A stretch of DNA of 64,000 nucleotides. Origin: Botryllus schlosseri. Its lineage: Eukaryota. Below, in pieces: positions 11,519 through 51,297 of this stretch. The notes below the pieces were generated by a model. The model worked only from the letters and a program-made list of their open reading frames with translations. It ran no database searches and was not told where the DNA came from. The translations under genes were made by a program, and so were the position numbers. How positions within the stretch are numbered: position 1 is the stretch's first letter; every line of letters begins with the position of its first letter. The stretch lies in the NCBI GenBank assembly GCA_051294905.1, contig CM119372.1, forward strand, positions 30,630,001-30,694,000, given 5' to 3'.

Positions 11519-12115
11519 CATGTTCACAATAAGAGCAGTCTCATGTTCACAATAAGAGCAGTCATGTTCACAATAAGAACAGTCCTATGTTCACAATAAG
11601 AGCAGTCATGTTCACAATAAGAACAGTCTCATGTTCACAATAAGAACAGTCTCATGTTCACAATAAGAGCAGTCATGTTCACAATAAGAGCAGTCTCATG
11701 TTCACAATAAGAGCAGTCATGTTCACAATAAGAACAGTCTCATGTTCACAATAAGAGCAGTCATGTTCACAATAAGAACAGTCTCATGTTCACAATAAGA
11801 GCAGTCATGTTCACAATAAGAGCAGTCTCATGTTCACAATAAGAGCAGTCATGTTCACAATAAGAACAGTCTCATGTTCACAATAAGAGCAGTCATGTTC
11901 ACAATAAGAGCAGTCTCATGTTCACAATAAGAGCAGTCATGTTCACAATAAGAACAGTCTCATGTTCACAATAAGAGCAGTCATGTTCACAATAAGAACA
12001 GTCTCATGTTCACAATAAGAGCAGTTATGTTCACAATAAGAACAGTCTCATGTTCACAATAAGAGCAGTCATGTTCACAATAAGAACAGTCTCATGTTCA
12101 CAATAAGAGCAGTCG
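11519..12115 (+). repeat. Minisatellite of mostly alternating 23/21-bp units ATGTTCACAATAAGA(G/A)CAGTC(TC)
   Basis: More than 25 near-identical tandem units read directly; the same unit forms the element's outer arms at 10858-10970 and 13355-13463 (inverted). Confidence 0.95.
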
Positions 12116-12775
12116 TTGTATTCACAATAATATCAGTCGCAGCATCACCATATCCCCCGGACACGATGTCCGAGAGGCAACATAGTCCGAACACCACCCA
12201 GACATGATATCCGAACACCCCCAGACACGATGTCCGGGTGTCAACGCAGTCTGAACACACTCCTGACACGATGCCCGAACACCCCCAAACACGATGTACG
12301 TACGTAAAGTACGTGCGTACAGGTACAGCGACCCAGTCGAGACCGATAGATTGATGACTCGAAGTTGACTCAAAAAAATTAGCTTTGAGTCACGAGTCAA
12401 TTTACATTTTGATACACAGAGTCAAGTTAAGTCGTGTCTGCGGGGGGGGGGGGTCGGACATCGTGTCTGGGGTGTGATCGGACTGCGTTGACACTCGGAC
12501 ATCATGTCTAGGGCGTGGTGAGTTCGGACATCGTGTATGGATGAGGATGTCTGGGGGGTGTTCGGACATCATGTCTGGGGTGTGTCTGGGGGGGGGGCGT
12601 TCGGACATCGTGTCTGGGGTGTGTTCGGACGGCGTTGACACTCGGACATCGTGTCTGGGGGTGTTCGGGCATCATGTCAGGAGTGTGTTCGAACTGCGTT
12701 GAGACTCGGACATCGTGTCTGGGGGTGTTCGGACATCATGTCTGGGTTGTGTTCGGACTATGTTGCCACTCGGAC

Positions 12776-13290
12776 TAGGGCTGGGCAAAATCGAGTACCT
12801 GAGTGATTCGATTCTGAATAACGTAATAGGCTTCGAGTCGAGTCGATTATTCGAGTATCAGTCATTATGACGTCATAACAGAATGTCATATGTCAAAGAT
12901 CAACTGAGCACTTTATATGCTACCACAAATAATATGATGCCTGTATTCCGTCACATTACAGATACCCCGGTATTTTTCAACCATACGGATTTCTTTGCAC
13001 TTTGTATCAATGTTGCGGGATGATCATAATTTTGGAAATGTGTTATTTTCTGTAACTTTAGTAGCTTGCACTATCTGTTTCGTATGCTGCGATACGTCCA
13101 ATCAAGGTTTCAAGGCATCCACGGAGGAAATTAGTATCGGAATTATAATTCTCATTGACAAATTACCTTTCAGTGGCGAGGAACGTATAATTTCAGTACT
13201 CGAAAAAATCGACTTTTACTACTCGACTCGATTCATTAAAATTAATGCTCGATTCAGATTCGAGTACTCGAATCATTGTGCCCAGCCCTA
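12776..13290. mobile_element. hAT-type MITE nested in the Foldback right arm
   Basis: TIR TAGGGCTGGGCA / TGCCCAGCCCTA; perfect 8-bp TSD actcggac (12768-12775, 13291-13298). Confidence 0.9.
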
Positions 13291-13783
13291 ACTCGGACAT
13301 CGTGTCCGGGGGATATGGTGGTGCTGCGACTGATGTTATTGTGAATAATACAACGACTGCTCTTATTGTGAACATGAGACTGCTCTTATTGTGAACATGA
13401 CTGCTCTTATTGTGAACATGAGACTGCTCTTATTGTGAACAGAATTGCTCTTATTGTGAACATAATCGAACCAACCCTCCTCCATGAATTCGTTTTGCAA
13501 ATGACACTTTACTGCCTCCTAACGGCAATCTAAAGAATTTGTGTGGAGATCGATAGAGGTCCAGAAACAATAAACTTGAAAATACGAAGCCATTTATCAT
13601 GGAAAACTGCATTTATTCATTTTCTGATTGCAAATTATCACGAAATTTGTTATTATGAGAAGTTCAATTCGAGATCTGAACTTTGCATCATGGTCCAAAT
13701 AAATCTCGAATTCGAATATGTTATCCATGTCCGATGAAGACTCAGATTAATTCAAAGTCAGAGAAAGAGATGAAGTTATTAGA

Positions 13784-15301: not shown

Positions 15302-18300
15302 ATGGGAAACATCGTTCGCAGACTGGCTCCGCACAATACAGAAGGCATCGACCCAGGAAAAAATGTAGATAAGCAAGCTCAAGCCATTGAGGAAATTTAT
15401 CAGGTTGGTTTTCTCGCGCCCGGCTATTATAGATAGGAGAGATAACGCAGTGGTGACGATAAGCGCCTACCGCCCGGGCGGCTCAGGTTCGATTCCGCCA
15501 TGGAGGTTAGCCGCGGAATATAGACACACATTGAAGAAAGAACTGCAGCATCGGGCACTATAGGCTGACGTAGATGCCTGTTTAAGAGACCGTAACTGCA
15601 ACAGTAATTGGCATCCTTCTATCTGTTGATTACATCGCATTGGACATTGTGTGTGTCATGTTCGGATAAAAATATAATCTGACGATTAGCATCTTGATGT
15701 CAAGCGAAATATCTTTCTTCCAGTTGGTGAAGCCTCCTAACGATGCTATTGGACAAGATCGAGGTATACTTGTCAAGGCAACGGCAGAAGCATTTAATGA
15801 AGGAAAATACGAAAAGCTGCACGATATTATACGGTAAATTGGAAATTTAAAATATATTGGTATTAACGTCATAGAGATTTGCATATTTCGTTCATTACTT
15901 CACTAAATTTCAATATTTTTAAATTAGCTAGCAGAAAAGGCTGAAATATTGTAAGTGAAGTCTAATAAGGTAACAATAAGGCACAGAAAACCGGACATTT
16001 GTGGTATTGTCAAAAGTTGATGGAAAGCACGTAAATCTGTTGATTAAACAAAGATCTAATAAGCCTGTACTATCTCTTTTAATAATAATCATTAAGTGCC
16101 ATTGTCTCGATTAAATTTTTGACATTTGATAGTGCGCATCTGGCTGTAGATAGGCCTATGCTATTGCACAGTGCAGGTATCCAGAGGTGGTCAAAGTAGT
16201 CGGAATTGGTACTCAACTGGAAGTACAATCAACACCATAAATTTAGCATCAGCATTCCTATACCACGATATGGTCAAAGTTGTTATCGTTGGTACTCAAG
16301 TAGAAGTAGAAGTAATGCTGTAATTTCTACAATTAGAAGTAGCATTTTCTATAAAATCTCGAACTACTTCCAATGGAAACAGTAAACTGAACTGAAAAGT
16401 ACTGAAATAAGTAGTTTCAAAAAGTAGAGTGGATTTGTTTGAGCAATCGAAGAACCTTTTTGCAAGATGCATATTCGCTGCCAATGGCACAGCAAATAGG
16501 GCCAATTTCCGAAAAGAAATACAGCAGCTATGGTGATACAGGGACGATGTCGCATGGTTTCATGACAATCTCAGTCACAAATGTGACAGAAACATACCGT
16601 AAATCGACTTTCTACTTCAGAAAATCCAGAAAATCCGAAGTAGTTTTGCCGAGTAGCGTAGTAGTGCGACTGGTCTTAAATCATAACCATCAGACCAGCT
16701 GTGCTGGTATAACACATTTGATAATGCTGTTTCTCCATAAAGAACATTGGATCACTATGAAGCACCTTAATTTTGTACAGTTGCGTTTTCACTATTTCGG
16801 ATATCACCAACTTGATCACTTGGCGGATCCGTTCCTGATGACCCCGAATCAGCATTGTCTTCTGATAATTCAAGGTTATTCAAAAAATCGTCTACCTTCT
16901 TTTTGTCCTCGACAACATAAAACGATGCCACGAAAAAGGCCACAGCTCCTATTACGCATGCAAATAACGTTACATACATCGACATTTTCATGGACGCATA
17001 CTTAGTAGTATAAGTATCGGGCATGTCAGCCGCAATGGCATCGGCCATTAATCCGAGTAGATACGGGCTTCCGGCATCGCCGAATAAGTGCCCAATTAGA
17101 AGTTGAACTGCGTTCGCGGTGGACCTTCTGTTAGGCTGTGTCACGTACAAAGTCATGTCACTTATGAGAGTCCAAGTCACACACAGTGAGAGATCAGCAA
17201 AAAATATTAAAATCCACGCCACTGTCAAGTGTGATTTTGCGTATTCCACACCAAAAAACAGTAACGGCGATCCCACAAGTAAACCATACGCGCACACGAG
17301 AGCGTCCGCATTAAGTTTCCCATGTATTTTCCAACGCCGCGCTGTTTCAGCACCGATTCCGACACCGGCAAATCCTGCGACGCAAGTAATAACTCCAAAG
17401 ATTAAACTGATGTTAGCGTTTTGGCAAGCGTTGCCTTGGCACGCAGGCAGAGCCCCGGTGGCGATTTGTGAATTCGCGATGTAAGTGGGACCCCAAAGAG
17501 TGAGAGATCCGATCACAAACGACGAGAAGGTAAACCCAAGAGTGACCCAAATGAATGACATATTTCCGGTAAGGTAACGAAGGTCTTCAAGGTAAGAGTG
17601 TCGAACTCCCACATTCGCACCACGACTTGAAGTTTCACTCGCGCCACGCACTGGATTTGGGCACACAAATAATAACAGGAAAACACCGATCACTCCAAAC
17701 ACTGGAGTCACACGTAACGCCCATTGCCATCCTCCTAGCGCTTCTGCTACTGCGGCGCCTATGATGTACCCCAAACCACCTCCGATCGGGATAGCAAAGT
17801 AAAACACGGATAACATCTGTGTTCTTTTCGGCCCGACGAACATATCTCCAATTAGAGTCGGTGCGATTGTAGCGTATGATGCTTCTCCAATACCAACAAG
17901 AGCTCGGGTTAACAGAAATAGCAGAAAACGATCAGGACTTTGAATAAATGACGAGAGTAGGGTAAACCCTGACCACACCAGCATGCCTCCGGCCATAATC
18001 CAGATACGGTTAAACCTATCGCCCAGGTAACCGAATATTGGGGCTACCAGCATGTAGCTGATGATGAACACGGTTTGTAGTAGCCCTGCTTGAGCGTTGT
18101 CGATGTGAAAGTTCTGTGTGATGTCCATTAACACTCCAGCGATTGTGTATCTGTCGATGTAGTTGAGTAGGTTGATGTACGTGAGAATCGCAACTCCAGC
18201 GTACCGTTTCCACTTTGGCAAGTCGTGTATTGTGTCGGGATCTTGGGGTTCAGTGTGAGTGGGTTGCTTTTCGACTGGGAGGAGACTAGACTGACTGTCT

Positions 18301-21300
18301 GTTACGTTGTAAGATGAACCCACGATGGAATCATCTCGCTTCACCCACGTGTCTCTGTTTGGTTGAGTTGTTGAATCTGTCATTTTTTATAGCTTCCACT
18401 GCAAAATAATGGAGGTTTTTCTATTGAGATACGTTGGATTCACTGAATTTCATGCGGAATCATTACACCTGTCGTGTGACATGTACGCTTATGGCACCTC
18501 CAGCTACTAAGTTGTCTCGAAGTGCTCTCTTGAAACCACATGCTGTACGGTCAATTACATTTCAAGTGAACAAACAAAAAACAGAGTTGGTTACAGAACA
18601 GTAGTCAGTTTTACTTGCTACTTGAGTGGAGGTAGAAGTAACGCTGTAGTAATTATCAAGGGATATCAAAACTACTTCAAATGAAGTAAAAAGTGAAGGG
18701 TCTGAACACTAATCAAGTAACTAGTTTCAATAAGTAGATTTGGTCGCGTAGTATCATACTTACAACAGTTAACAGGGGTTGGCTGCTTTAAAATTAACGG
18801 GGTGCGTCTTCACAAAATGGCTGATGACACTTCAAATAGGTAGAATCTTCGAAAAGATGTGTGTTAACTAGGATACAGGGGCATTTCACGCGGTACTTAT
18901 GGCAATTCCAATCGTAAAAGTAATGCATTGTATTGATCGCTCAGCTGGTTAATTAGTAGTCTAAAAGCATTACCATTTGAGTTAGTTGTGTAATGTGAAT
19001 GTCGGCAAAACCTACTTGAGTACTCCAAGAAAGTGGAAATACTTCCTTTCTGATCACCTCTGATAGGAACACAATAAAATCTACAATTACTCATGCTCTC
19101 GAGCTACGAGTGTTATTGAGCTAATGCAAATAAAAACGTTGACTCGTCTAGCCATGATCACGCGACTGCAAATATATACAATTGAGTGACATTGAACAAT
19201 ATGTAATCGAACGTACAACCTTCAGTTATGGAATTTGTCCTTGGCGTATTTGTGTGACCAAAGTGTGATCCATTGATGTCATTTCTTTTCAGGACATATC
19301 CTGTCATGGCATTATAGGCCTACCCTATTATGTCATACAATAGATACATTAATATCCTGAGCTGTTTACTAACGAATTTTTTTTTTGAGGTATTCAAATG
19401 GTTTAGTCTATTAGTACTGCTTACTCAAGGGCCAACTCCACATCATATCTTCAAAAATGGAACCTAATTCCATCGCCATTTGTCATTCTGCGTTAGCCTT
19501 GAAGATTTTTCCGGCGATTTCCAATGCCTCGTCCCGATCTACTTCTTCAAACTGCTAACTTCTCATAAAATCCAGTTTCGACTCCTACTTGAAGTAACTT
19601 TGACATGCCACCGTTAGTTGTAATTGCAACATAGCAGACATTTACGGCATTACGACTACTCGCAATTAAAATTCACATAGGCAAGAAGTCCCGATGTTGC
19701 TGACGACGTAACGTAGCGTGTCGACAAGCGGAAATCATCGATGATATTACCAACAATCAAAGCACTTTGTAAACTCATGTATTTGGTCCGCGACCCTATC
19801 GCTATCTACACTATATACTATTCATATATATACTCGAATTCATCATATTTTCGCAGCTGTTGCGAAGTCCGACTGTTACACCAATTCTGGATGCCCGACC
19901 AAGTTTAACATGTCAATTTCAAACCTAGTTCCGGATTTTACTGTAAATTCTCGTACATGCCAGGTGATAACTAAACTTCATTGAAAGGCTACATGAAAAC
20001 GTATTCTTGTGGAAATCCGCAATAGCGTCGACTTCTACAAGGCCGACGAAATTACGAGAGCCTATATACTTTTATCTTGGAAGATCTGCCATCGGCTAGC
20101 TGCTCCTGCTACAGGAAAACACTTTCAGAGCAGCGTGCACCGTACATTCATTTCCCGTTATAGTTATGAACTGTCACGAGACGCAGAGCGCACGCATCGC
20201 GTTACAATCCAGTCAATCGTGTCTGCAAGAAATAACTATCTAAATATCGCGTGATCACCAACTTACTAGTCACGACGTTGCCGTTGTCTGCGGCAATCCT
20301 ATGCTCAGTTCCTCATAAACTTGACGAACCTATTTGACGATAGTAATTGAAAACGAAAGCGGCTATGCATACTGTTCCCTATCGCTAAAAAAGTACTCAC
20401 TAGGTACCGGACTGTGCGCTATTCAGGGTTTTGAATTCTTACACAATTTTTGGTTTTCTAGTTTTGCTCGCGACATTACTACGACAATTGCGCAGATAGT
20501 CAGGCAATGGCGAATTGCGTTTTTGCCGGTTGCGCAAACCGAGATTCCAACGCTTGCCATAGTGATCTCGCGAATAAGCATTTAACTATTCCACCAAGTA
20601 TACTACTTCACTAATTGTGCAGGCGTGAGCAAAGCACTCAAACTCGTCCGGAAACCGATGTCACGATCTGATCTCGTTGTGTTTGTTACAAATTGCTGGC
20701 GCAAACTTGGCGCGGTAATATTTCGTACAGCCACCGGGGCCTACGATAAGTTATCGTACGCCCTGCAGCCACTCATCTCAGGCTGTAATCTGCGATTCCA
20801 GAAAATATTCGGTTTGGGCAAATAATTTTCATATATTGAATGACATCGCCAGCACACCGACGTAGTGAAGGAATGTGGCGTCAAATTCACATAACGTTTG
20901 CGCTGCTCATGTCAAAATAAGTCCATTTTATCGTTCCTCATTAATATTGTAACTCTCAGGCTGGGAGTACTTGCCTCAACTTTCTGTTAAATACATCTGC
21001 ACACCAGGGTTCTTTCTCGGCTTCAATTACGTCTTGGAACATTATCAATTGGGTAGGTAGCGTACGCCGCTGTGTAAATTTCTAAGCCGACTCAATATTA
21101 GCACCCCGGGCACGCATACGCTCCTATATTGAAGTTCCAACGAATATGGACCTATATTTGCAAATCAATAATATCTGAACCAGCGAAAGATGTTTGCAGT
21201 CTACTCGCTATGCGAACGCTGAACTCCGATATAGGTCGCGTGGAACGTACAATAATAACATTCGTACAGTACAACGTAGAGGTACAAAGTTCATAACGTA

Positions 21301-24300
21301 CTTGGCGGAAATCGGTAATTTTTCCCGTCGATTGGAAGGACATTCATTATCGAGGTATTCTAAATTACCACCGGAATCCTGTTACACCGATTACGAAGCA
21401 ATAGCCTAATGGTCGCAGTTTTGTGGTGTTATGAAATGATGAAAATATTTGTAAACTGATACTGACACTGGCCCAACCGACAGTCTTTCTATCCAAATAA
21501 AGGTTGTGTAGTAGCTGGAAAAGTGTAATTATGCGTGAATTTGTATTTGTTTTTGGAATATTCCTCGATCTATCTTGAGGTATGGTCTCCTGAGAGTCTT
21601 AGAGGATTTGTATTTGAAGTGAATTTTCATTCCACTAGTCACTGGATTTGAGTAACTGCGCTCCTGTTCGCAAGTATAATTTGTATCAAAATGTTGTACT
21701 CGATTTATACCGCGGTGTATAAGTTCTGAGGTAGGATCTGGTTTCCTATGCCATGGGTGTATATTCACACCATATAATCAGGGGTGGTCCCTGGGTGCTA
21801 AGAATGTAGACAATGTTGCCCCGACGATTGACAGACATAAGTCTGTAGCTCCTCGTCACAATCTACTTATTCAATCGCGTGCTTGAGTACTATTGCGACT
21901 TATCTTTTCCATTTCCACTCCAATTAGGTATGGGTCGGATAATAAATTAGGATATAGATTAGAAAACTGCGATGGGTATAGCTGGCAGAAGTGACCTGCG
22001 TATTACCACAAATTATATCTAGCTAACTGTATTTACGCACAGCACAGATAAATTTGTCACAAAGTTATCGAAAGCAGTCCACAATCATTAACCAGAGGCG
22101 GTCAAAGTAGGCTACCCATCGTTTCCTGTTCCCTTGGTGCTCAAGCTGAATGGTGGCAATGTCGTGATTTTATACTCAAGTACAAATTGCTTTTCCCAAG
22201 ACACGTCAAAATTACTGCAGCTGGTAGTAGAACATGCAGATTTGAAAAGTTCTCACGTAAGTAGTTTCAAAACGTAGGTTTGGTCATGCGTTACAAACTA
22301 TATTAGTATCTACTTTTGAAATTACAAGATGTTTCTATCACGACCTATGCGTGGTGCGTTCAACTTCTCCAGTCGGCGGGCCGGATATGAGAAAATGAAG
22401 TACTTGGCCGGCCAGATTCCTGAATCGATACATTAAACGCGTATTTATCCATCCGTACAAGGATTAACCGTATTTAATGTAAACTTCAAGTTTGAAGCGT
22501 AGGCACCAATACAGTATTAAATGAATTTAATCACGTAATGTACTTCAATAGCTGTTGAAGTCAATCAGACGTCTGTGGTCGATCAGATTTGTGAACAGGT
22601 TCTTTGAACTCTGGCTGCATGTAGGACACAAGGAAAAGAAGTAGCTAAAGAGGATCTAACAATCAATATTTATTTGTGTCCAGAAAAACCAAGAATAATC
22701 TACAGTCACAATAATTTGACGTATAGTAAGTAAGTAGTGGAGAATTGGCGCAGATTGTGACCTCGGGCCATATTATCACGTAAGACTGAAAACTGTCTGC
22801 GGTCCGCTCAAAATCACGTCGCGGGCCGTATGTTGCCCGTCCCTGACCTACACAATAGAAATATTGCCACTGGAAATGGGTGCGATTTTCGGAAATATAT
22901 TCAGTATACGTGGTACCCGAATATTTCGTTATGGCAATTTCACTTGTATACGTAACGGAAACATAACATATCCCAGAATTGCTTTCTAATTTACAAAATC
23001 CAAGACTAAAGAGTAAGTAGATTTTTTTTCAAAAATAGTGGAACTAGCTAAAACATAATTGAGTAAGTAGTGCCAGTAGGTGATACGTGCTTTAATATCC
23101 CATAAAATAAAACGACTAAACTACTGGTAACCTCTGCAAATCACTTCATACTTTTCAGATTGCTCACAACCTGATTTCCTCACTACTCTCTACCTGTGTG
23201 CCTTACTCGCATAGTTTCGACTGCTTTTATTTGAACGGTGTTTGACGTATCCTTCATGAAGTTTACAGCTCGTCGGAAATGATTGACGCTATTATTTTGT
23301 ATTGCTCGCATGTGGTATTGTAATGAGAAATCGGAACAGGGATGTCATTTCCTGTTGGTTAAGCGGTTTGTGGATGCATGTCGGATGATATACTTAGCAT
23401 CTTAATCATTCGGAGGATTACGGCGTTCGACGCATTCTACCAGCCTCTGAAAATCTGTGATTGTTCAGTTTTGGGCTCATTGCGGTTCATTGCCAGACAA
23501 CGCGTAAACAAACATTGTAATGTAGCGGATCCATCGTTATCGCAAAACGTTTGTAGCAAAGTAGAATGAAGGCAGTTCTGTAACGCTCAATTAACATCAG
23601 TGTCCACTGTCCATAGGCGTACCCTGGAGGAAGAATTGATAGGGACAGGTTGAAATGGGGGGGGGGGGGAGGGGGTTGTACGATGGTATTTGACACATTA
23701 GCGCCGAACCAGAGGACACTAGATATGCTTGTAATTATTGTGGATATGCGGCGTACCCACGATTTCGTCATCCTCACAACCTTCATGACCATACGGTTCA
23801 AAAGCATAATTATCAATTAATAACTTATTTACTTTGCAAAATGTACTGATGCTTATCAGAGCAAACCAACAACCCTTTAGGTGAACCCGTAATTTTCCAA
23901 GTATAGTACGCCCCCATGTATAATACGCACCCCTAAAATAGCATGCAAATTCTGGGAAAAACCCTGTACCCATGTATAGTACACACCCTGCATTTCAGTA
24001 CATGAATAGTTCCGATTTAGTACACGATGTCATTCTGCTTTGCGATGTCACTGTTGAACAATCATGAAATAACGATCGCAAATCATTATACAATTAACAC
24101 TTTGACTGCCAACGATCCTAAATTTAGGATTTTACTCAATCCCAGAAAGTGCCAGCTATCCTATATTTAGGATATTTTTCAAATGCGTACAGCAAAGTCT
24201 GGAATTGGTTCTATCCCCGGATTTCGGGCGTATTCGACGATACTCAATAGGCTTGTTTTCAGAAACAACCATTTTCGTTACCGGAAGTATTTTTAAAAAA

Positions 24301-27300
24301 TCGCAGCTGTATACAATAGGTCAACATTTTTGGTTTGACCACTAGGTGGCTTTTCATAAAATGAGCAGCCAAAAAATTGCAATATTTTTATAATTCCTTG
24401 ATATTGAAAAAAAATTCATATTTTCATAAGATGCACAAGGTTTACACTTGTCAGCACGCCCGATTCCAGCTAAATATCCAACTAGTAGAAAATTCATTGT
24501 TTGCTGGCGTTTACTGGCAATTTCCATAATAGGCCTTGGCAGCTAAAGTGTTAACGGGATTGTCTTTAAACGATAGTAGATAGCAGCCAAAGCCTGCGAG
24601 GCCGGCGGCGCGATAGTTCAGGCCAACGACGCGACATCTTGAGCACTAGACCTATTGCAGATGCGATTGCTAATCATTATACAATTAACGGCATTGTCTC
24701 TAAACGATAGTAGAGAGCAGTCAAAGCATGCGAGGCCGGCGGCGAGATGGTTTAGGCCAGGGGTCGGCAACCTTTTGCTAGTCACGGGCCAAATTCCGAG
24801 TGCACAACTTTTTGGCGGGCCGGAATTTTTCTTAATACTATATATTTAACGCTAACGTCGGTATAGTACCCTACATTGCTGCAATCTCAATCATACATAT
24901 TTACATTTCAACAACGCAGGATAAATGTCACACTTGGCGCAGCTCGATTTGTAAAACGTTTTCAACTTCTGGTAACAAGTCAGAGAAAGCAAGAATCAGA
25001 CCATATTTTAAATGGGCGTTGGAATACGTGATCTTAGCTAGCTCTTCGTGAATTTCATTGTTGAAAACTATTGTTCACATGCGTAGGCCTACACGCTACC
25101 AAAAGTCGATGCCATTTCTTTTGCATTGTTGGTCGAGCTGGGAAACAGACCCATTTTAATACCGTAGGCTACTCTTTGTCAAAGTCGTGCAGCGATATGT
25201 TCTTTGTATGAAATTTGTCATTCAAGTCAACTGTATCGCTTTTCAAAAGGACCCATTTGAAATTTTCTGGTAATGGTATTGACGTTCACATTAAACGGAG
25301 TACTGAGTAGTCAGAATTTATTTTGTACAGAACGAATGTCGGAAAGGTGGGTGGCAATTCCGTAAGTAAATTTCCTATCACAGTTACAAATGTGTATTGC
25401 TGGTGCTAGGTTTACTCTCCTCTAGTATAAGAAAGTGAGCATAATTTTATTTTTATTTTTGTCATTCCCAGAGTCGCAGTTTTGTTTCCAATACGCTTCA
25501 ACATCTCATGTACTCAGTTATTTCACCATGAAGTTGCAAATTCAATTTGTCTAGATGTGACGTTAAATGTACTACGAAAGCAAGAGTTTAGTTCATACAC
25601 TCGTGCAAGCATAGCTGCTCGACTTGATGCGCGAACATGGCAGATATATACAGGACATCGCCATATTGATTCTCTGCTTCTAGTAATATATGGGGTAGGC
25701 TATCTGTTCGTGATTAAGTTTGTGAGACCAAAATCAGCTTTCGCCACTGTGTCCAAAACACTATTCAGGTTTGTTGTCGTGGCGTACAATGTCCTCTGGT
25801 GAATTAAACTGCAGATGACTAACCTATACGGAGGCTAGTTATCTATAATGAAACGGAAAGTTTGAGATTTTGTCATTGCGTTTTTGAAGCAGAGGAACGG
25901 CACCCTTATTGTCGCACCCTATCATAGTGGCATATCCTTAAAAAGTATTGTATACCTTTGTTTGCGCGGTACACCCGCCTAATAAGCACTGGTCTAGTCT
26001 ACTCTACAGATATTCTCTATGTCCTACTTTTAGTACGAGATAGGCTACTAGTCAACCGCCTTCGCACCCGCGGCAATGCCGCATTCTTTCCAAGCAGTGC
26101 TGCACTGCAGGTTGGAACTCATTACAAAACGGCGGGCCGTATTCTTGTGGTAACTAATTACTTGGTCGCGGGCCGGGTGATTTCGCTTGGCGGGCCGGAT
26201 CCGGCCCGCGGGCCGTAGGTTGCCGACCCTTGGTTTAGGCCAGTGGTTCCCAACCTTTTCCCACCCACGTACCATTTTGAGGTTTTATGCAGTGCTCGCG
26301 TACCACCTATATAAGTTACGTGCGTTTCCACCATTTATGACGTCATACTCACGTATTTGACCTATGCGAGGTGTATTAACAAATTCTAGTAAACTAGGAC
26401 AGGGATGTCAAACATACGGCCCGCCAGACGATTTTATCCGACCCGCATAGCAATTCTGAGTAGGCTACATTGAAAAAAGATTGTAGCCTATTATCCATCA
26501 CATCCACAGTAATAAACCAAATTACAAAGTCCGCGTTGACAGTTTAATATCTTGTATTTATCACAACGCATACGCAGGGATAACGCCAGATTATGACTAA
26601 AGCAATGGTGGCCAACCTTTTTGCCATTCACATTTCGACTACTCGTGTAACCTACGGCCGTATTCCAGGGCATAGTCGTAATGAACGAGCTGGACGCCAA
26701 ATACCCAGGTTAAAGTGTCTATATGTCCATTTCTGGTAAACTCCGGACTAATCTATTTAATGGTAGGCTTACTATGCGCACTAAAATCGCGAGTGGTCAC
26801 TGGTAACGTCAAGGAAGCAAGTGCTCATAGTCGCGCGAAGCGCGAAAAAAATTCAGATTCACCAATGAATTTCGTCATTGATATTAGTAGTTTTACATAT
26901 TACCATCAAACTTTTATCCTTTCTCATCCGGTGTGATCAGATTCACGTAAGAACAGAATCTACTCGCGTACCACCTGGAAGACCTTCGCGTATCACAGGT
27001 TGGAAACCATTGGTCTAGGCCAGGGGTGGGCAAACTTTTGAGCTCGCGGGCCGCATTAAGCATCTAAATCCATTCGCGGGCCGCACTATAGGCTATAAAA
27101 TTGGGAATATAAACCGAAACGCAATATCGGTATTTGATAATGTAGTGAGGACATGGAGTTGATATATGTGCTTATTTAAAACAAACCAAACATTGCTTTG
27201 ATGATATCGTACTCGCCTCAGAAACATAGTGGCGAGATTTCATCGGCTGGTCGGCCTCAATAACCAATTTGTCAAGACTATAGAGATGAAAGTCGGATGT

Positions 27301-30300
27301 CCCGATTCTTAGAACCGGATAGAAATTTAAATCTGTGAGCAGCGATCTGTTCATAGATTTGCTAATTCTACTTTTGGTTCAGTTCCAGGACACACAATGC
27401 TGACAGCATCATAACCATGTTAGCTTCAAATACACTTCTACTATCTGTAGATAAAATATAAATACCCCAATTCTACGCATACCGAGAAAGAATCTACCTG
27501 AGACACGCGCGAATCGTTTTTTTATAAGCACATCACTGAGATTATTAAACTGGAGTGGCCAATCTGAAATCCCACTCGTGGTCCGAATTATGTCAATCTC
27601 GTTTAGGATATCTGTGATGTTTATCAGTTGAAACCTTTCAAACTGCGTGGGTCTTGAGATCGGGCTGTCGCGGCAGAAATTAAACATAAATATTAATATA
27701 GGAAGTATTTACCTTGGAACAGGGGTATTTACCTTGGAACAGGGGTTCTCAAACTTTTTAAGACACGCCCCCCTTTATGATGGTGAAACATTTCGCGGCC
27801 CCTTATCGTCATATCACAAAACGCAACCAGGATGCTAGCCAACCTAACGGATAGTTTGATGGCATGGAAGGTTACGACTGTGGATGGGAGATTTTCAACT
27901 ATTAAAATCATACCGAATACCGAGCAATAATAATGAAGTGGATTACAATCGCGCGGAGCGCGAAAAATTTTTTCAGTTGAGCTCAGCTTCGCACCCCCTT
28001 CAGATGCCTTCACACCCGCAAGGGGGGCGTGCACCCCAGTTTGAGTACCATTGTCTTAAAATTATCATGGTGAGATATACTAAGAAAAAGCTTAATCAAG
28101 TCCCTACCTTAATTCGATATTGAGTATTTGAGTATTTTATCAATATTTAAAAAAAGTTTCTTTAGACTCTCGCGGGCCGCACAGAACGGGCCGTAGTTTG
28201 CCCACCCCTGGTCTAGGCCAACGAACCGACATCTTGCGCAAGACGATATTACAGATGCGAGTGCTCGGGCTAACGGTTATGTCGTGCGCACCAGGTCTGT
28301 TGGACAGGGTATGGTAAGGTATGGTATGGTATGGAAGTATGGTATGGTATGGATCGATATTTTGGTATGGAATATGGAACAATGCAAGTATGGTATGGAA
28401 TGGAAGATTTTAATCTATGGTATGGAACGACTTTTCCATACTTCCATACATTGGTGCTTTATACATTTTATCGTGATCTGTGTGTCTGTCATGTGATGCA
28501 ATAATTGGTAATGTAGGCTACTACCTCATTCCTTAAGTGACGACAGCTTACAAGCAATCATGATGCAACGAACTAAATGCTCAAGGTGATTGATGATTAG
28601 ATTTATTCCGGAACATTGTCCGCACATCTATACTATTTACATACCAAATATATCTTATTGGTCATATTTCAAACGATCTCGCATTAGGATTATAGATCAG
28701 GGAGTGGGGTAGATGTAAGTTTGGAATTCTCGCCACGCTAACCCCGACCAAATACTGTACTAACAATCATGCAGATTGCCTGCAGCTGGGATATTTTATG
28801 GGTGCGCCTATACTATAAATTATTTTGCGAGTATTTACTTCAAACTTGCATGTGCCTCATGCCAATGTACCGGAAATGAGATGATAGGGGGAGATGTGGT
28901 ACCGATGGATCACTGGGACCGAAAATACTTTGAAAATTCTCTATGATAATTCCATGATTACACTCCGCATGCTGGCAAGATCTTTCCTCACATACAAAAA
29001 AATTCGACGTGCGCGAGCAATGGGGTCTCTCACAGATGATTTTTGTTTTAGCGGGTGTAAACTAAATTTAGATCGACATATACGTTTTTCTTTGTAACCT
29101 TCAACACGAACAAACCAGCAATCATTTTTATTGTGAAGTGTAGGGCTTGTATCAGGCTATATAATGGCACCGATTATTTTTTTCAGTACTTTCCTTGAGT
29201 GGGCTTTTCTTCGATTCATGTATAAAATTCGTGGGGTGGGGACCGATGATACAATAGCCAAATCAAGCAAAATAATCAAGCATACTAATCATGAAACAAA
29301 TAAAACATGTCTACGTACAGAAAATCTTTATGTAATAATTGCATATGATGTTTTGTCGCTATAACGAGGTATTTGGAAGTCACACTGTCGATTTTCGGAA
29401 AATATGTATGTACCCTCAAATTTATAAGCCCGAGCCTAAATCGCAACGTGATTTTATGACAACATTTGAGTTAATAATTATTCTATTTTTTGACAGTTGC
29501 GACCAAACATTCTTCTCGGGCTTGCTGTAGCTCACATTATAATACTGAGCAATAAAAGTAGTCACATTTGAGTTTTTTAGGGTATATGTGTCATAGGTCC
29601 CCGGGTCGTGTGCCATTGGACCCACCGGGTGGGGACCGATGACACGTTCGAGCAACAAATTTTGAACGCCCATAAATATTTTTTGAAAAGACGGATATTC
29701 ATGTATATGTGCGCGATAGGTAGAGCTTGTATCAAAGTGCTAAGCCAGCAAAAGATCTGCTGTTTTCGGCTGAACATTTCAGGGCCAGCGATCATTTTCC
29801 GATTTGTGATCCATCGGTACCACATCTCCCCCTATGCATGGAGCAGGGGCGGGCAACTTCTCCAGTCGGCGGGCCGGAAATATGGAAATTAGGTACTTGG
29901 CGGGCCGGAATGCTGAATGGATAAATTATTCGCCCATGTATACAAGGAATAAATCGTATTTAATGAATGTATTTTATCGACAGCAATGTCACTTCAAAGC
30001 CATTTCTCGCCGATAATGGCCACAAGGTTGATTTGAGAATCATAGCATTGTCATACAGGCACCGCCGACCGCCGTGTCTGCTTCTTTCTGATCAAATACC
30101 TCACGGTGCAATCCTTAATTAAGATTTCAAAGCGTTTGATAAGCCCGGTACCCAAAATTTACCAAGAATAAATTAATTAGGGTTCAGCACATCGTAAATG
30201 CCGATAATGCAAGTCTTCTCGCTTAGACGAACTTACGCGTAACCTGCACTATCGCACGCTGCACAGTGCGCACACCTATATAATAACATACAGTCACTAA

Positions 30301-33300
30301 AATTTGACGTTTAGGCAAGTGATTATGTAAGACGGGAAACTGTCCGCGGGCCGGAAAAAATCTTGTTTCGGGCCGCATCCGGCCGGCCGTAGGTTGCCGG
30401 CCCCTTTTATGGACAGTACTAGATAACAATCTGCTCACTATCTCATTTTGCTCGCGGAAGCAGTAGAGTAGACGTACACGGCACCTCACCACCGTGAACT
30501 AAACCTCACCAAAACAGACTCTATAAAACTATTACCAGTACTTAGATTCGCATTAGATTCGCTAGTTTAACCAATAATGACATCCGAAATATCAATAATA
30601 TAGGTGCTATAAAAGGTACTATACTTATGATATTGAAGTATTTGAAAGTATGGAATGTATGGAAAGTATGGTATGGAAAATTGCAAGTATGGTATGGAGA
30701 GAGTAAGGCAAGTATGGAGTATGGAAAATTCTCGTTCCATACCATACCATACCATGCCCTGCTGTTGGAGATGCGACTGATTACGCAAGCGATTATATCT
30801 TGCGCACATGGCCTCTTGTATATGTATATGCGATTGTTTGGGCCTGTCGTTGACGCGATGAATTAGCGAGAATTGCCGCGCGTTAGTGCCTATTAGTGAC
30901 CTAATTTCGGTCGCGTACAAACGGCAAACCAACTCAGCGGGAGATCCCGTGCTTGTGCAACACGCTTTCCGCTAATTGGCAACGCGTTACACTCTATAAT
31001 ACGAATTACTGTGCGCGATGGCTGAAAGTGATGCGCGATTGGAAACAATTAAGTTTTTTTATCGAGGCAGATTTTTTTCAAGGCTTGTTGTACCCATGTA
31101 TAATACGCACCCCCCTATTTTAGGGCAAAAAATCGTGAAAATTTAGCGGATTATACATGGAAAATTACGGTACTTTATTTTGGAATCTAAAAGTTATTAC
31201 GCACTATGATGTCATAATATGCATATGTTCAAATGTAAAAATTTTTGGTGTAGCTCTTTTTGCGTTACTTTCGCTTTAACACCTAAATAAAGAGCCGAGC
31301 TCCGAAATTCCGTGTCACTACCAAAGTTATATACTTACAAGTGGCCACTAAATAGGGTATGGAAGCTGCTAAGGTCTTACGTTTGTTACGTTTGTTACTA
31401 ATTATGTAATCAGACGGAGCGACGGTAGAGGATAAAACGAACATCTTTAGAGATGTCGATTTGGACGCACGCGCGATCAGAGACATTTTATCGTTGCTCG
31501 ATTAGACTGGCAAATACACTTTTTCCTGCTCTAAATAATTTTATCACCCATACGCACCGCAAGCTGCATTCCCGGCTCCCAATAATTCGCGAGCCAGATT
31601 TTCGTGATAGTCTTTTTGGTCGGAGCGCGAAATTGGACAATGTATATGTCTGGGAATTGGAATTCTTTCCAGCACATAATCTTTACTTCAATAAGGCTCT
31701 GCGAACGTTAATCTGGAAATGTAGCAATTAGCCAACAATTGCCGCGCTGCGAGCTATTGAGAGCCACATTGTGTTCAACGTAAAAGACAGCGCTTCTCGT
31801 TTGTAATCATCTGGTACCAATATTAATTATTGTCTGCAATGTACCTTGATAGTTGATACACTCGTACTCCCGTATAGCCGCGCAATGTCTAGTTCAGTTC
31901 GCTACTCGCACTACTCATTGTGCGTAGAATGATACAGCATCGTAGGCCCTGACACATCACCAGATTCTTGGTGACACAAATTCTGGTTATGTTATAATCG
32001 TTTCAACTGGAACCTTCTATATACCTATAAAACGATCACCGATGGACCGACGAGTAATTAGCGCACCTAAATCGGAGTTCAAATAATTGTGTTTTCGGAA
32101 GAAATTAGATTTCTATCGATAAGGCCGTGACGCGCGTTCATGTTGCTGTTGCTGCAGTTGCATTTAAATATTCGCACCATTTCAATATTACACTCGATTG
32201 CATGGTTTGATTATAATCAGTGCAGTGCCGGTATTAAAACTTCACATTGGTGTTTAACTCTGTTCATCTTCACATCAATGGGCCGCAGTAACTTCCGTTC
32301 TCGTGCGATTGTGACGTCATATATGCCAAGTGATTGTGACGTCATTGGACTCCGCATACCCACACAGAATCATTGTGAATTTATGATGTATTGAGCAACA
32401 ATGATCTCACAATGCCTTGGTCAAAAATTTAGGGCACGAGCGCATCTTTCTGCCAGCCTTAATTATACCACTTTCAGTGATCACTACCTACTAGAAGTAT
32501 TCGTTGATGTTGATTACAAGGATAAGAAGAGGCAGCAATATCTATGACATCCTGAACTTAATGGGAATACCATGGATTTGAAAGCACGATGCTTGTACAT
32601 TGGGACTTTATTCTGTCAATGGACATGGACGATTTTCAAATTCGCAGTCTGTGACCAATTGAACAAATTTTGAAACTATATTCTGGTGCCGTGCTACTGA
32701 GTTGCATATCACCCAATTTTTAAGTTGATTTCACTAAAAAAATTATGAATCTATCATTAAACTGATATCGTCTTGTCAACAATAAAAGGTTTAATAGTTG
32801 GTACTAGGAATTCAAAGCAGTACAGGTAAAATTGGAAAAGTATAAAACCAACATCAATTGAAAAAGTAATGTAAGTAGACTAAACCTACTTGAGTACTTC
32901 AAAATAGTCAGGTACTTGATGATCATAATCATGAACTGTCAGCATTTCTCACTGTGAATACTTCAAGTGAATACCGCAGATAATCAGATTTAATATATTT
33001 TCAAATCCAACTCCGATATTGCTCAAATTCATTTAAAAGTCGCATTAAATTGAAAAATATAAAGAATATGACATTATCTATTTTTGTCTTGATGTTTTTT
33101 GCAGCATATACACCGACTCAAGAAATACATACACACCGCTGGGCATATCAGTTACAGATATAGCCTTGTACGGCTTTCTAAGTCTTGCACCACCCCTCCA
33201 TGCTATCCCGAAAATGCTGAGCGCCAAGTGGAGAAGCCACAGAGATACCAGTTTTACTGATCAAGTTGTTAGTCTAGTCTGGGATTGAACCCATGATCAA

Positions 33301-39300: not shown

Positions 39301-42300
39301 TCAATGACATCTATGGTGCATGGCATGATGGCATGCAAGGTAAAAGTCCAACAACCGCAGCCATGCACGACAGTGCCTGAACTATATGTAGGCTGTATAG
39401 ATTGCTCGATTGATTCACTGTCGTTCAAATTTGAGGTCCTTCCCCGTTTGACGGACGCCCAGGCGAGACAATATCACTGGGTCACCCTTTCAAGCTATTC
39501 ATTTTGTTCAAGTCACCTGCACCGAGTTTTGTTGCAATGCCATGGGTCAAGTTTGCAGACCTAGTGGGTTTGGGGTGTGGTGTTTGACTTGTTGTATGGG
39601 TTATCGCTTTGCTGTTTGGGATCAACTTTTAACCGCATTTCAATCATCTTATTTACATTTTTCCATCAGGCAAGAATACACGCCTTTGACGTTGGCGGCG
39701 AAATTGGCCAACAAGGAGATGTTTGATCACATCCTGGAATTGAAGGCCGTTGAAATCTGGTCTTACGGCAGTGTCGTTTGCAAGGAGTATCCTCTCGTAG
39801 ATTTGGATTCGGTGAGTTCTTGCGGTTTCGTGCCGGTTTCTAGCTTGTGGCTCTCGATTTCAATGAATGCCAGGCAATCAGGATGTTTGTTGTTTCGGGC
39901 AAGACATTTCATTCATCCACTGCTACTATGTAATGAGGTTACGGAGGTATCGTTTAGTCTCTAATCTCGAGTTGCAGTTAGGTATCACTGATATATCAAA
40001 CCCTAGTCTAACCTTGCTTTGACCTGACCGCTTTCCTAATCCGTGAGTACAGTAGGTCAGTAACCAAATACTCAAGAACGTTTTCCCTACCACTTGCTCA
40101 AGTCTCTTTATTTTTTGACTACTCTCACCTAGGACCGTAACAACACTTTGTCAGGCCCCCCGAAAACGCTGCTCTTTGTCCCCTCAGGGTGATAAACTAA
40201 ACTTCTTGGGGGTGTACGTTGTCACAATGATACTCTCCTTGTTCTAGGTGCTTAAGGAGCTGCTGTTATCTCATCGCGCGCAGCGCTAAATAAGTCCAAT
40301 TCATTGATAAATTTGGTGAATGAAATGAGAATTGCATTTATTACAATCAAATTTTTAATTGGCGTCTTTGAACATTTAAAGCACACTTAGTACTTATACA
40401 TCTGCTGGCGGGCCTGGATATTGGCCAATGCCGCAATGCCTACCGCTAGAAATTATGCGTTTTTTCTTGGGGGAGGGATACGCATACTAACAGCCTTATA
40501 TCGTCTTCAGAGCCACTGTTTTAGTGCTTTATAACTGTATTCAACCGGCCAACCATCGTATTATTGCCAATTCCATTGTTTGCGAATTAAAATGTAGCTA
40601 AAATTGAACCCTTATTATCTGTAATATAAAGTAATTTACTATTATATATATATATAGGCTTGATAATGTAAGAATTCAAATGAAAAACAAGGGCATGCAT
40701 TTTGAGGTAATATTTTGGAATGATTTGACTGCTACGACCCACACACGATCTGAATGTTTGAATACGGCTTGCGACGAAAATTCAGGTTGAAACCCCTGTA
40801 CTAGATAGACCTTAAATGATGTGAAGTAGGAAGTTGTTTTGGTATATGTTTCCATCACTTTTGGAGCGGAGTTTTTATATCGACTGTGAAAAGCAGCCCT
40901 GAATGATGGTTACTGAATATGTTTTTGAAAATCGCTGGAATTCTTGATCCCTTTAGTCATTTTGCATCAGTCGATATTGAAATACTGTCCACAGTCGACT
41001 ACTACTAAAAGTATGCAAAGTCTCGATCAAGCCTACCTTTTAAAAGTACTTACTTGAGTTCTTTTCATGTCTTCATTTTCTACTTCAGTGGTTCTCAAAC
41101 TGGGGGGGGGGGGGGGGGGGGGGGAGATGCGTGAAGCTGCGGTCAACTATAAATTTACTTCCAATTCATCGTTATTGCTCTGTGTATAGTCCGAATTTCA
41201 GAATTGAGAATCAAATCATCAACAGTCATAACATTCCATGCTGGTTGCATATTGCGATATGACGACAATGGGGACGCAAAATGTTTCACTATCATAAAGG
41301 GGGGCGTGTCTAAAAAAGCTTGAGAACCACTGTTCTACTTTCAAGTGAAGTAGTTTTGGTATGCCCCTGATCTAACTCCAACAAAATTTTATCCCGAAAT
41401 AAAGCTAACCTAACCGTAGCCCCCAACCCAAGCTAAGATAACCTCACGCTAGGCTAGGCTAGGCTCCTAAAATATCCTGGTATATTTTTACTAGCTCATC
41501 TGTATTGCCGTCAGAATAGAACCGTGATTCAACTCTACCATACAGATCAATGCGAGAGACGGTTCGATAAATCGTGACTCGGCGTTGCACATTGTACTCT
41601 CCGAGGAAAGTGTGGACCATTTGGACATGTTGGACGGGCTGCTGTACCAACTACTACACGACAAGTGGAAATCGTATGCAAAGATCCGATTCTACAAACG
41701 GTCTTTGGCATTTTTTCTCTACATGATACTGTTTGTTACTGCGGTATATCTGCACCCGGGAAATGTAAGCACCTACACTACTGAACATTTATTTTGATTG
41801 TTATTGAAGACATTGTACTTTGTAAAATTGGTCCAATCGAAAACGTATTTGCATCAGATGAGTGAAATTGTGATGACAATAATACAATGTAGCCCTATGT
41901 ATGATGGTAGTACAATATGCGACTACAAAGAAAATCTCGCTACTAGTACCCTGCATTGACTTTGTGAGAATCTGGGTAGCATTTTACTACATGTTTTGGA
42001 TGCTGTGATAAGACCAATCCCGTGTTTCAAGGCTTCCACAGTGGGAAAAAGTTTTGAAACTATAATTTTTGTTGAAAATACATCTCTTGGAAAGGGGCGG
42101 ATAATTTCAGTATCAAAAAAATCTTCTCACAAATAATTACAACAAACAAATCAAACAATAAAATAAACTGAATTGTACTGAATGCAATATGGAATATTCC
42201 AGATTCGAGTACTCGAATCCTAGTACACGCCCTAGTTCCGAGGACGCAGCCAGCGGCAATTGAACTCGGGCTCTGGTTATCGACTGGTTTCTGCGAGACC

Positions 42301-50152: not shown

Positions 50153-50404
50153 AAAGCGAGATAGTGTAATGGTTATGCGTCCGGCTTCTCGATTGGTAGG
50201 TCGTGGGTTCGATCCCCGGCCGGGTCATACCAAAGACTCGAAAATTGGTATCCGCAGCTATCCTGCTAGGCGCTCAGCAATCACGGATAGCATGGAGGAG
50301 AAAAAAACGGGTGCTGACTAGATGACCTCACGGCCGTATCGCGTATAACTCCGTCGTCAAAGCATCTCGATGGTGCAGGCGAAAAAGAATATATCTCTCT
50401 CTCT
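50153..50404 (+). mobile_element. tRNA-derived SINE (copy B)
   Basis: A box 50162-50172, CTC at the anticodon-equivalent position, B box 50206-50215, body near-identical to 13784-14044, (CT)n tail. Confidence 0.88.
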
Positions 50405-50419
50405 GAGGCATGTCTGTCG

Positions 50420-51297
50420 CAGCACAAACATATCCCAGACACGATGTCCGAGTGACAACATAGTCCTAACACCCCAGACATGATGTCCGAACACACCTTG
50501 GGCACGATGTCCGAGTTGCAAAACTGTCCGAACGCACCCAAGACATCATGTCCGAACACACCCCAGCCACGATGTCCGAGGGGCAAAACAGTCCGAACTC
50601 ACCCCAGATACGATGTCCGAATGGCAACACAGTCCGCACATTAGGGCTGTTCAAAAATAACTTTTTTTTTCGGATTCCAGCCATTCAGTGATTAAATTGT
50701 CAGGTTACCTTAAAAAATGCTGCACACCAAATTTGGTTCAATTCTAACAAGTATAGGGCTCCGCGGATCAAATTAAAATTTTAAATTTATACAGGAAAAT
50801 TGAAATAAAAAAAATTTACAAATTTTTCTGTCAACCCCATGAAATTGTTGAGCTGTCTTCAGAGACGACGCAAAAAAAATTTGACTCAATTCGGACTAGT
50901 AGAAGTGGAGTTATTGGAGTTTTTCGTTGATAATTCTCCAATTATCCTTGATTGGTGGATAATCCGAGAATTATCAACGAAAAACTCCAATAACTCCACT
51001 TCTACTAGTCCGAATTGAGTCAAATTTTTTTTGCATCGTCTCTGAAGACCGCTCAACAATTTCATGGGGTTGAGAGAAAAATTTGAATTTTTTTTTTTAA
51101 ATTTTACGTAGTAAATTAAAAATTTTAATTGGCTCTGCGGACGCTTAGACATGTTCGAATTGAACCAAATTTGGTGTGCAGCCTTTGTTGTGGCAACCTG
51201 ACAATTTAATCAGTGAATGGCTGGAATCAGGAAAAAAAAGTTATTTTTGAACAGCCCTACCGCACATACCCCAGACTCGATGTCCGAACACCCCCTA
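50420..51297 (+). repeat. Fragment of the Foldback GACACGATGTCCGA tandem-repeat arm, split by a MITE
   Basis: Same ~22-25-bp units as 11000-11500 and 12140-12770. Confidence 0.8.
50642..51259. mobile_element. Fully palindromic hAT-type MITE (618 bp)
   Basis: TAGGGCTGTTCAAAAATAAC...GTTATTTTTGAACAGCCCTA; arms complementary up to a centre near 50950; perfect TSD ccgcacat (50634-50641, 51260-51267). Confidence 0.92.

Follow-up and report, generated by a model that had tools for sequence, protein, structure and literature searches.

Three hAT elements stacked at a single 8-bp target site in Botryllus schlosseri, and a terminal base that may record their order of insertion

Introduction

Insertion twice into one site is already known for the P element, for hobo (a hAT) and for casposons (PMC5932611, PMC4779613). 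In the tandem dimers of transposable elements (TEs) described by McGurk and Barbash (2018, PMC5932611, bioRxiv 10.1101/158386), the 8-nt target site duplication (TSD) is retained within the junction after two same-site insertions, and the junction motifs of the P element, and also of hobo, are sharper than the single-site motifs. The words 'heterologous' and 'different TE' do not occur in the text of that paper.

The hAT elements of the Charlie/MER1/Buster group are described as having an 8-bp TSD (NTCTAGAN), YARNG termini and terminal inverted repeats (TIRs) of 14-16 bp, for example CAGTGGTTCCCAACCT; hotspots lie within other repeats, and TcBuster has a central TA at 26871 of 27985 sites (PMC2836564, PMC3014272, PMC3499496). 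In human hATs, positions -11/-10 carry an AT-rich motif (Levy et al., 2009, PMC2836564). TIR position 3 is R in one reported family (Novick et al., 2010, PMC3014272), and therefore a CAA end can be characteristic of a family.

Results

Layout of the stack and its host repeat

In the window, a stretch of 64,000 nt from contig CM119372.1, three unrelated elements designated as E1 to E3 share four 8-bp target copies, with GTTTAGGC at 24750 and 26233 and GTCTAGGC at 27013 and 28211 (exact window coordinates). The features are as follows, with the strand given where one was assigned.

24555 to 24663 (+): neighbouring host unit with empty site GTTCAGGC, outgroup for the T/C variant
24664 to 24749 (+): left half of the host 134-bp unit, by alignment to the neighbouring unit
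24750 to 24757: target copy 1, GTTTAGGC, context ATG-TSD-CAG, never targeted again
24758 to 26232: E1, non-coding hAT (Charlie/Buster-type), left TIR CAGGGGTCGGCAACCT, TIRs 15/16, high read depth
26233 to 26240: target copy 2, GTTTAGGC, context TTG-TSD-CAG
26241 to 27012: E2, non-coding hAT, left TIR CAGTGGTTCCCAACCT, TIRs 14/16
26400 to 26446 (+): lone hAT 5' end in E2, after the TA-centred 8-mer AACTAGGA
26603 to 26621 (+): second lone hAT 5' end in E2, CAA type, after GACTAAAG
27013 to 27020: target copy 3, GTCTAGGC, T to C at 27015, context TTG-TSD-CAG
27021 to 28210: E3, non-coding hAT, 16-bp TIRs CAGGGGTGGGCAAACT, perfect 16/16
27740 to 28053: N3, hAT nested in E3, related to a single element at 41086-41332
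28211 to 28218: target copy 4, GTCTAGGC, context CTG-TSD-CAA
28219 to 28265 (+): right half of the host 134-bp unit, by alignment to the neighbouring unit

The cassettes measure 1475, 772 and 1190 bp, with 0 extra bases between them and the 8-bp copies. The sequence-only reading had described a repeat-cassette-repeat array at one 8-bp site, with TIRs of its own in each cassette, no spacer bases and a host repeat of ~130 bp resuming afterwards. All coordinates of this anatomy proved exact, the TIRs matched at 15/16, 14/16 and 16/16 positions with no extra bases, and the 134-bp unit continues at 28219 after the block. The junction-side CAA ends, the hAT nested in E3 and the lone ends in E2 were absent from that reading.

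With the block and three of the target copies taken out, alignment of the site with the adjacent 134-bp unit was gap-free across the target. That unit has one GTTCAGGC only, and its start (24073-24097) is separated from the rest by a TTAA-flanked insert. The host repeat is tandem, with units of 131-135 bp among which the 8-mer varies; it is high-copy and tandem elsewhere (joint from 24708 back to 24578, run X12). In the flank, the second haplotype is highly diverged. Written as ATG-GTTTAGGC-CAA, the empty site matches the published extended target WWNNTYTARANNWW at 13/14 positions. Since the paralogous host unit has T at position 3 of the 8-mer, the T form is probably ancestral; E2 would then come after the T form, and E1 would be unconstrained.

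The chance of one more 8-mer within one mismatch was 3.4e-4 from base composition, and 0.02-0.04 per further copy with at most one mismatch under the hAT spacer profile; three such further copies adjoin TIRs at the locus. The GTCTAGGC form at copy 3 scored about 3x higher than GTTTAGGC under both profiles.

Three non-autonomous hAT cassettes

By their TSDs and TIRs, E1, E2 and E3 are classed as non-autonomous Charlie/Buster-type hATs whose cassettes carry no transposase. The TSDs are 8 bp long, TA-centred and NTCTAGAN-like (GTTTAGGC, GTCTAGGC), the family flanks end in GTCTAGAG, CTCTAGAG or CTCTAAAG, the TIRs start with CAGGG, CAAGG, CAGTG and CAATG, which conform to YARNG, and 14-16 of 16 bases are paired. 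None of the 11 frames of at least 60 aa in the cassettes passed the Pfam cut-off, and neither a transposase nor an integrase was detected among them; one sub-threshold Csa5 match (17 bits, cut-off 30) and the single match of the Rfam search (E 0.78) were taken as chance.

Similarity between cassettes was limited to terminal or short matches, with none between E1 and E2, 24 + 34 bp at the ends between E1 and E3, and 19 bp between E2 and E3. The elements are dispersed and multi-copy with varied flanks, as seen from loose ends and depth for E2 and E3, which are independent families, and from depth alone for E1. Among the minority of contig rows listed, 31 contigs of run X14 exit the window before 26241 (E2 left end) into mixed flanks, while 122 contigs (X1) and 51 (X14) exit before 27021 (E3 left end) into mixed flanks ending in GTCTAGAG or CTCTAGAG; the plurality of E2 and E3 family flanks read NTCTA(G/A)AG. 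Runs X5-X11, with small word shares, were left out as habitat evidence.

A partner was searched for and not found for either lone end in E2 (26400 to 26446 and 26603 to 26621). The 8-mers flanking N3 differ at 3/8 positions, and a 20-bp tandem duplication (27705-27746) overlaps its left end. E2 exceeds E1 in TIR mismatches and contains the two lone ends, and E3 has a nested element with diverged TSDs; these features look old and count against the reading preferred below.

At position 3, the right TIRs of E1 (base 26230) and E2 (base 27010) both read CAA rather than CAG. At both inner junctions the CAA thus belongs to the left element, and the two outer ends of the stack are CAG.

Junctions in a second genome

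A metagenome pattern scan for hAT end-to-end junctions provided a second, MITE-rich genome, in which 42 of 52 distinct junctions had an 8-bp spacer. Among these 42 there were 39 different spacers, and 40 had a central TA. A central TA, which the sequence-only reading had named as a preference of Charlie/Buster-type elements, is also usual at the published TcBuster sites (26871/27985). All complete dimers (10/10) were heterologous, pairing unrelated elements. The central TA was sharper at junctions than at single sites (40/42 vs. 37/63, p 2.7e-5, second genome only), where the single-site set also takes in false ends and the outer ends of dimers.

The 8-bp excess had the size expected from plain motif preference. 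On these grounds homing to related elements was dropped as an explanation, and also because TcBuster is reported to have no affinity for hAT fossils (Woodard et al., 2012, PMC3499496).

None of the 30 long-flank junctions of the second genome had a third element beyond the junction; at one dimer (L013) CAATGG came next, but a recognisable TIR beyond it was absent. Viral contigs yielded 0 matches to the junction pattern. Depending on the assumptions made, between 0.004 and about 400 trimers are expected per 100 Mb, too wide a span to weigh a trimer against chance.

One CAA end per junction

Exactly one CAA end was present in 35 of the 42 8-bp junctions, two CAA ends in none (p 1.8e-6 with 35 CAA placed at random), and no CAA at all in 7. 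Junctions at other spacings had no CAA ends (0/10), all carrying two CAG ends (Fisher p 1.2e-6), and CAA occurred at 0/45 unstacked TA-centred ends, or 1/34 with a stricter pattern. In several groups, one family end was CAG when alone and CAA at a junction; relatives of the E2 right end in the second genome were CAG in 3/4 cases. One locus was polymorphic, with TTG in L070 and CTG in L012 and L097, and the base can therefore change after stacking. Two outer ends (L068, L085) are CAA with no third element. Like the 7 junctions lacking CAA and the polymorphic locus, they count against the mechanism proposed below. No published account of such a CAA/CAG junction rule was found in the literature.

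An intact end places C three bases outside the target copy, while a CAA end places T there. At -11, C was found in 2/45 cases in the second genome and 0/23 in this window (2/68 in total), against a background of about 20% (pooled p 4e-5). Since C at that position is rare at hAT sites, an intact end probably shields its target copy until the position-3 base mutates. The measured T-over-C preference at -11 was about 8-fold, whereas roughly 50-fold or more would be required to raise CAA ends from <10% to 83% of junctions; the 8-fold preference thus falls short unless later mutation hides a near-total ban.

Discussion

Order of insertion

The sequence-only reading had E2, the middle element, inserted first. 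With a single point mutation, four histories are equally short whichever base is ancestral, and the data rule out solely E2 as the last insertion. What stands of the earlier proposal is that three independent hAT families inserted serially and in place into copies of one TA-centred target, and that the array holds a record of insertion order; the middle-first order is not supported. The term self-regenerating hotspot needs qualifying, since the 8-mer is copied at each insertion but the copy is normally left beside an intact end, apparently a poor target until the end mutates.

Since the left element carries the CAA end at both junctions, and near-fixed differences from the family contigs are in excess in E1, we infer the order E1, E2, E3 from left to right, with the CAA-bearing element as the older resident. 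The layout, the independence of E2 and E3, the target motif, the single CAA per junction and the C depletion are observed, whereas the greater age of the CAA element, and with it the order, is an interpretation. E1 holds 26 of the 29 near-fixed differences listed in the stack and E2 holds 0, counts that rest on 40 of 942 differences listed, by a ranking that is not defined.

Neither age test in the second genome made the CAA-side elements clearly older: their outer-TSD mismatches averaged 0.85 (n = 13) vs. 1.0 (n = 20), which is not older, and their TIR mismatches 0.92 vs. 0.70. Among the 15 joints listed (869 more exist), none spanned 24757-28219 or a single cassette, and among the 32 pieces listed no contig spanned a junction, so that no allele with fewer cassettes was seen.

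Proposed mechanism and alternatives

The reading we prefer, with a probability of roughly 0.7, combines serial in-place insertion, shielding by intact ends, reopening by mutation at position 3, and the order E1-E2-E3. The non-autonomous elements would be mobilised by transposases encoded elsewhere, whose shared extended target the site fits, and every insertion would duplicate the 8-mer. An intact end (CTG beside the 8-mer) would present C three bases out, which the transposases would avoid, so that the element's own copy is shielded. A change of G to A at TIR position 3, after which the end reads TTG, would restore the A/T flank and open the copy again, whereupon the intact end of the newcomer would shut the inner junction and leave further growth solely to an outer copy. 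E1 would have inserted first and, its right end reading CAA, E2 would have entered the right copy; next, with the right end of E2 reading CAA and its right copy changed from T to C, E3 would have landed in that copy. Target copy 4 is predicted to be a poor target as long as the E3 end is intact. That the conserved third TIR base acts as a guard against landing beside kin, which one transition removes so that stacks grow outward and junctions show the order, seems to us slightly better than an even bet.

An E2-first history, in which one target copy mutated and E1 and E3 then entered the two copies independently, is equally short with one mutation, and TIR divergence is greatest in E2 (14/16), which also contains the two lone hAT ends. 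It would, however, place E1 beside the intact CAG left end of E2, a disfavoured context, while the junction CAA is on E1, and the listed near-fixed differences are mostly in E1 (26 vs. 0 in E2); we regard it as unlikely. The single CAA might instead reflect survival or later mutation, two-intact-end 8-bp junctions being re-cut or lost, so that CAA says nothing on order. The flat age test and the polymorphic locus agree with such loss, the junction pattern is blind outside TIR positions 3, 4, 8-10 and 14, and McGurk and Barbash (PMC5932611) describe older dimers as often lacking intact TIRs and propose that intact ones are lost faster. Close intact ends do survive, however, because 10/10 junctions at non-8-bp spacings retain two CAG ends, and the C depletion at -11 is present at unstacked ends, where junction survival is irrelevant. 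This, too, is an improbable account.

Two ways of assembling the stack from parts were also weighed against serial insertion. The T and C forms could derive from two host units or alleles, an E1-E2 dimer and E3 having been joined by deletion or crossover between near-identical 8-mers, as the tandem 131-135-bp host repeat with its variant 8-mers and the very diverged second flank haplotype would allow. One additional event is required, the empty site aligns as a single unit, and the E2/E3 junction has the CAA pattern of ordinary dimers, unexpected from a deletion, which makes such a joining very improbable. Arrival of all or part of the block as one composite, macrotransposon-like unit has in its favour that the TIRs at its two extremities (left end of E1, right end of E3) are compatible and that the 8-mers outside them are one base apart. 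A new outer TSD unrelated to the inner spacers would be expected, but inner spacers and outer TSDs match here (0.02-0.04 per copy within one mismatch), and the E2 and E3 left ends, among the contig rows listed, lie mostly in other flanks; such an origin is highly implausible.

Significance

The stack as such is probably neutral repeat DNA; the rule that it suggests is of more consequence. A one-letter change at the tip of an element seems to decide whether a neighbour can land, so that stacks would extend one way only and keep a record of the sequence of insertions. If true, the rule would explain why same-site hAT stacks are not commoner and would predict where they form. The relative ages of hAT families could be read solely from their junctions, much as is done with nested insertions, and across animals such families would have a relative clock that is genome-wide and needs no alignment. 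For the TcBuster gene-transfer vector, it predicts that sites adjoining an intact end are avoided and that a single base change reverses the avoidance.

Comparison with known systems

As in the McGurk-Barbash tandems, the TSD is kept inside the junctions, both in the stack and in the second genome. Those dimers, as described, join copies of the same element and may expand into satellites, whereas three unrelated families meet here, a composition that does not provide for unequal exchange; each stack junction is also marked by a change at TIR position 3, unlike the dimers in that description. The Charlie/Buster papers, in what they report of flank preference, do not tie it to the terminal bases of the element itself, nor to elements stacked end to end.

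CRISPR repeat-spacer arrays have a comparable array layout. With tandem casposons and Tn7 islands (Krupovic et al., 2016, PMC4779613), the stack shares repeated same-site insertion. Unlike casposon and CRISPR arrays, the hAT stack implies no site-specific integrase, leader or function. Its target is a loose genome-wide motif (39 spacers in 42 junctions) rather than one fixed site, and its growth, unlike theirs, is apparently gated by chance mutation.

Structure and setting of the stack

The four 8-mers and three cassettes with their terminal inverted repeats (TIRs), which the sequence-only reading had described, were all found as claimed and at exact coordinates; the stacked feature is real.

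24750 and 26233, target site duplication (TSD) copies, T form
24758-26232, hAT cassette E1, TIR match 15/16
26241-27012, hAT cassette E2, TIR match 14/16
27013 and 28211, TSD copies, C form
27021-28210, hAT cassette E3, TIR match 16/16

Similarity among the cassettes was confined to their ends, the elements being otherwise unrelated, and they are called non-coding because 0 of 11 cassette frames reached the cut-off in a Pfam search. With the stack removed, the empty site aligned to the neighboring 134-bp host unit, which has a single GTTCAGGC. Since the inner spacers equal the outer TSD, unlike those of a block moved whole, the three-cassette block was, as read from its junctions, assembled in place.

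The independence of the cassettes was assessed by placing contigs from four sequencing runs (three sharing one species label, one labeled differently) on 23000-29500 at 85% likeness. Summed depth in run X1 was 7-19 over the unique flank versus 7,600-230,000 over the cassettes, and the host repeat was high-copy too by contig depth. At the left end of E3, 122 contigs of X1 and 51 of run X14 diverged into mixed flanks, a plurality ending in GTCTAGAG or CTCTAGAG, and 31 X14 contigs diverged into mixed flanks at the left end of E2 as well, ending in CTCTAAAG. For E1, no contigs running off into mixed flanks appeared among the rows listed, a minority of all rows. The flank motifs at the left ends of E2 and E3 fit NTCTAGAN, reported as the target of Charlie-type hATs in the available portions of Levy et al. 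(PMC2836564) and Novick et al. (PMC3014272).

By its genes, the window content is animal DNA. Small DNA transposons are abundant in it, and approximately 23 unstacked hAT-like ends with TA-centered flanks were picked from the listed ends.

705, DDE_Tnp_4 gene
7441-9717, Surp/PRP21/ubiquitin gene (SF3A1-like), 758 aa, single open frame without introns
10858-13465, tandem arrays of 23, 44, and 64 bp in a large inverted, foldback-like layout; related piece at 50155-50640
16767-18386, MFS transporter gene, presumably spinster-like, 539 aa, likewise intronless in one open frame
23887-24010 and 31090-31172, an end, CCGTAATTTTCC...TATAATACGCACCC, which we take to be Tc2/pogo-like, present as an inverted pair 7.3 kb apart
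24094-24554, 453-bp element, presumably piggyBac-like, with 19-bp inverted ends in a TTAA duplication within the neighboring host unit; empty form, a 457-bp joint, in 4/4 runs
46862, exon of an ion-channel gene (about 33-47 kb) divided into exons
50642-51259, hAT-like element bounded by TAGGG ends; its 8-bp TSD, CCGCACAT, lacks a central TA
52315-53542 and 59068-60234, inverted pair of one 1.2-kb hAT element, 80% alike

The intronless SF3A1-like and MFS genes contrast with the exon-split ion-channel gene. The inverted CCGTAATTTTCC...TATAATACGCACCC ends may enclose the entire nest, including the hAT stack, and the element at 50642-51259 is of another hAT group than the stacked cassettes. Haplotypes differed strongly in the unique flank 23000-23787: one X1 contig had 0 substitutions and another 32 substitutions and 16 gaps in ~370 bp, while run X12 had 62 substitutions and 59 gaps in ~770 bp.

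Stacking in a second genome

Metagenomes were scanned for pairs of hAT ends, a right end followed by a left end, separated by 3-14 bases and with CAG or CAA permitted at both, a pattern blind to damage at most TIR positions. At least 120 loci were found, with an 8-base spacer in 80/120 among the matches listed. The 120 listed loci comprised 95 from five assemblies with shared loci, treated as a single eukaryotic, MITE-rich genome that resembles E1 and E2 at their ends only (80-88%), and 25 others, which among the matches listed formed 22 clusters with flat spacing, 3 at 8 bp.

Among the matches listed, the 95 loci gave 52 distinct junctions, 42 of them at 8 bp, with a central TA in 40 and 39 different spacers. 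Among the 30 long-flank 8-bp junctions listed, both outer TSDs lay within two mismatches at 10, all 10 complete dimers joined unrelated elements, and no third element was present at any of the 30; heterologous dimers are therefore common and trimers rare in this genome. A rough expected trimer count covered five orders of magnitude. The junctions L015, L120, L047, L110, and L111 had 12-14 bp spacers with CAG at both ends, and look like two overlapping TA-centered targets or the excision footprint of a lost middle element.

The junction rule at TIR position 3

Among the matches listed in the second genome, exactly one end read CAA rather than CAG in 35/42 8-bp junctions, none did in 7, and two in 0, where 7.2 two-CAA junctions were expected with 35 randomly placed (p 1.8e-6); at other spacings, CAA occurred in 0/10 junctions (p 1.2e-6). 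Unstacked TA-centered ends read CAG in 45/45 cases (33/34 under a stricter pattern), and several family ends were CAG when unstacked and CAA at a junction. The rule is based on this one other genome, from at least 120 loci listed.

The cause is probably target preference. TIR position 3 of a resident is the -11 base (three bases outside the TSD) as seen by a newcomer, so that an intact end presents C-T-G beside the TSD and a CAA end T-T-G. At unstacked ends, C at -11 was found in 2/45 in the second genome and 0/23 in the window, versus ~20% background, and T at -10 was enriched (32/68 in both together). The human hAT target is worded as WWNNTYTARANNWW in the accessible text of Levy et al. (PMC2836564). 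An intact end's C at -11 would spoil the adjacent TSD copy, a CAA end would give T and make the adjoining TSD usable again, and the newcomer's intact end would shut the junction anew, which would explain a single CAA per junction, never two, in the 8-bp register only. Several observations sit less easily with this preference. CAA-side elements were not measurably older in the second genome, and the T-over-C preference at -11, measured as ~8-fold with a wide interval, is too low for 83% CAA junctions unless later mutation masks a near-total ban. One scan locus showed both position-3 states, and two outer ends were CAA without a third element.

Order of insertion

In the stack, the left element carries the CAA at each inner junction, and the two outermost ends are CAG; this placement suggests the order E1, E2, E3. 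The proposal that the middle element came first, drawn from the T/C variant, is probably wrong; a single mutation fits four histories per ancestral base and forbids only E2 last. The paralogous unit has T, which places E2 before the T-to-C change and E3 after it. That change raised the site score ~threefold and would have preceded the arrival of E3. When the window was compared with family contigs, 29 of the best 40 of 942 differences, ranked on an undefined basis, lay in the stack (26 in E1, 0 in E2, 3 in E3), an excess in E1 that lends weak support as a third line for the order E1, E2, E3. Counter to the order, the TIRs of E2 are more diverged than those of E1, and an element nested in E3 has a TSD mismatch of 3/8, which, with E3 last, requires that the insert was carried along with the E3 master.

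Comparison with known systems

Within the running text of openly available papers, no report was found in which unrelated hAT families are stacked at one site, nor any mention of the position-3 rule. Tandem hAT repeats are described at cod inversion breakpoints (PMC12368964), with no TSD match in the accessible text. The hAT target is described in the available portions of Levy et al. (PMC2836564), Novick et al. (PMC3014272), and Woodard et al. (PMC3499496). According to the accessible parts of the respective papers, P elements and hobo are established cases of same-site double insertion in which the junction retains the TSD (McGurk and Barbash, PMC5932611 / bioRxiv 10.1101/158386), as are casposons (Krupovic et al., PMC4779613). 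Same-site stacking is thus already known as a kind of feature, and what this locus adds is a testable rule on the gating and polarity of such stacks.
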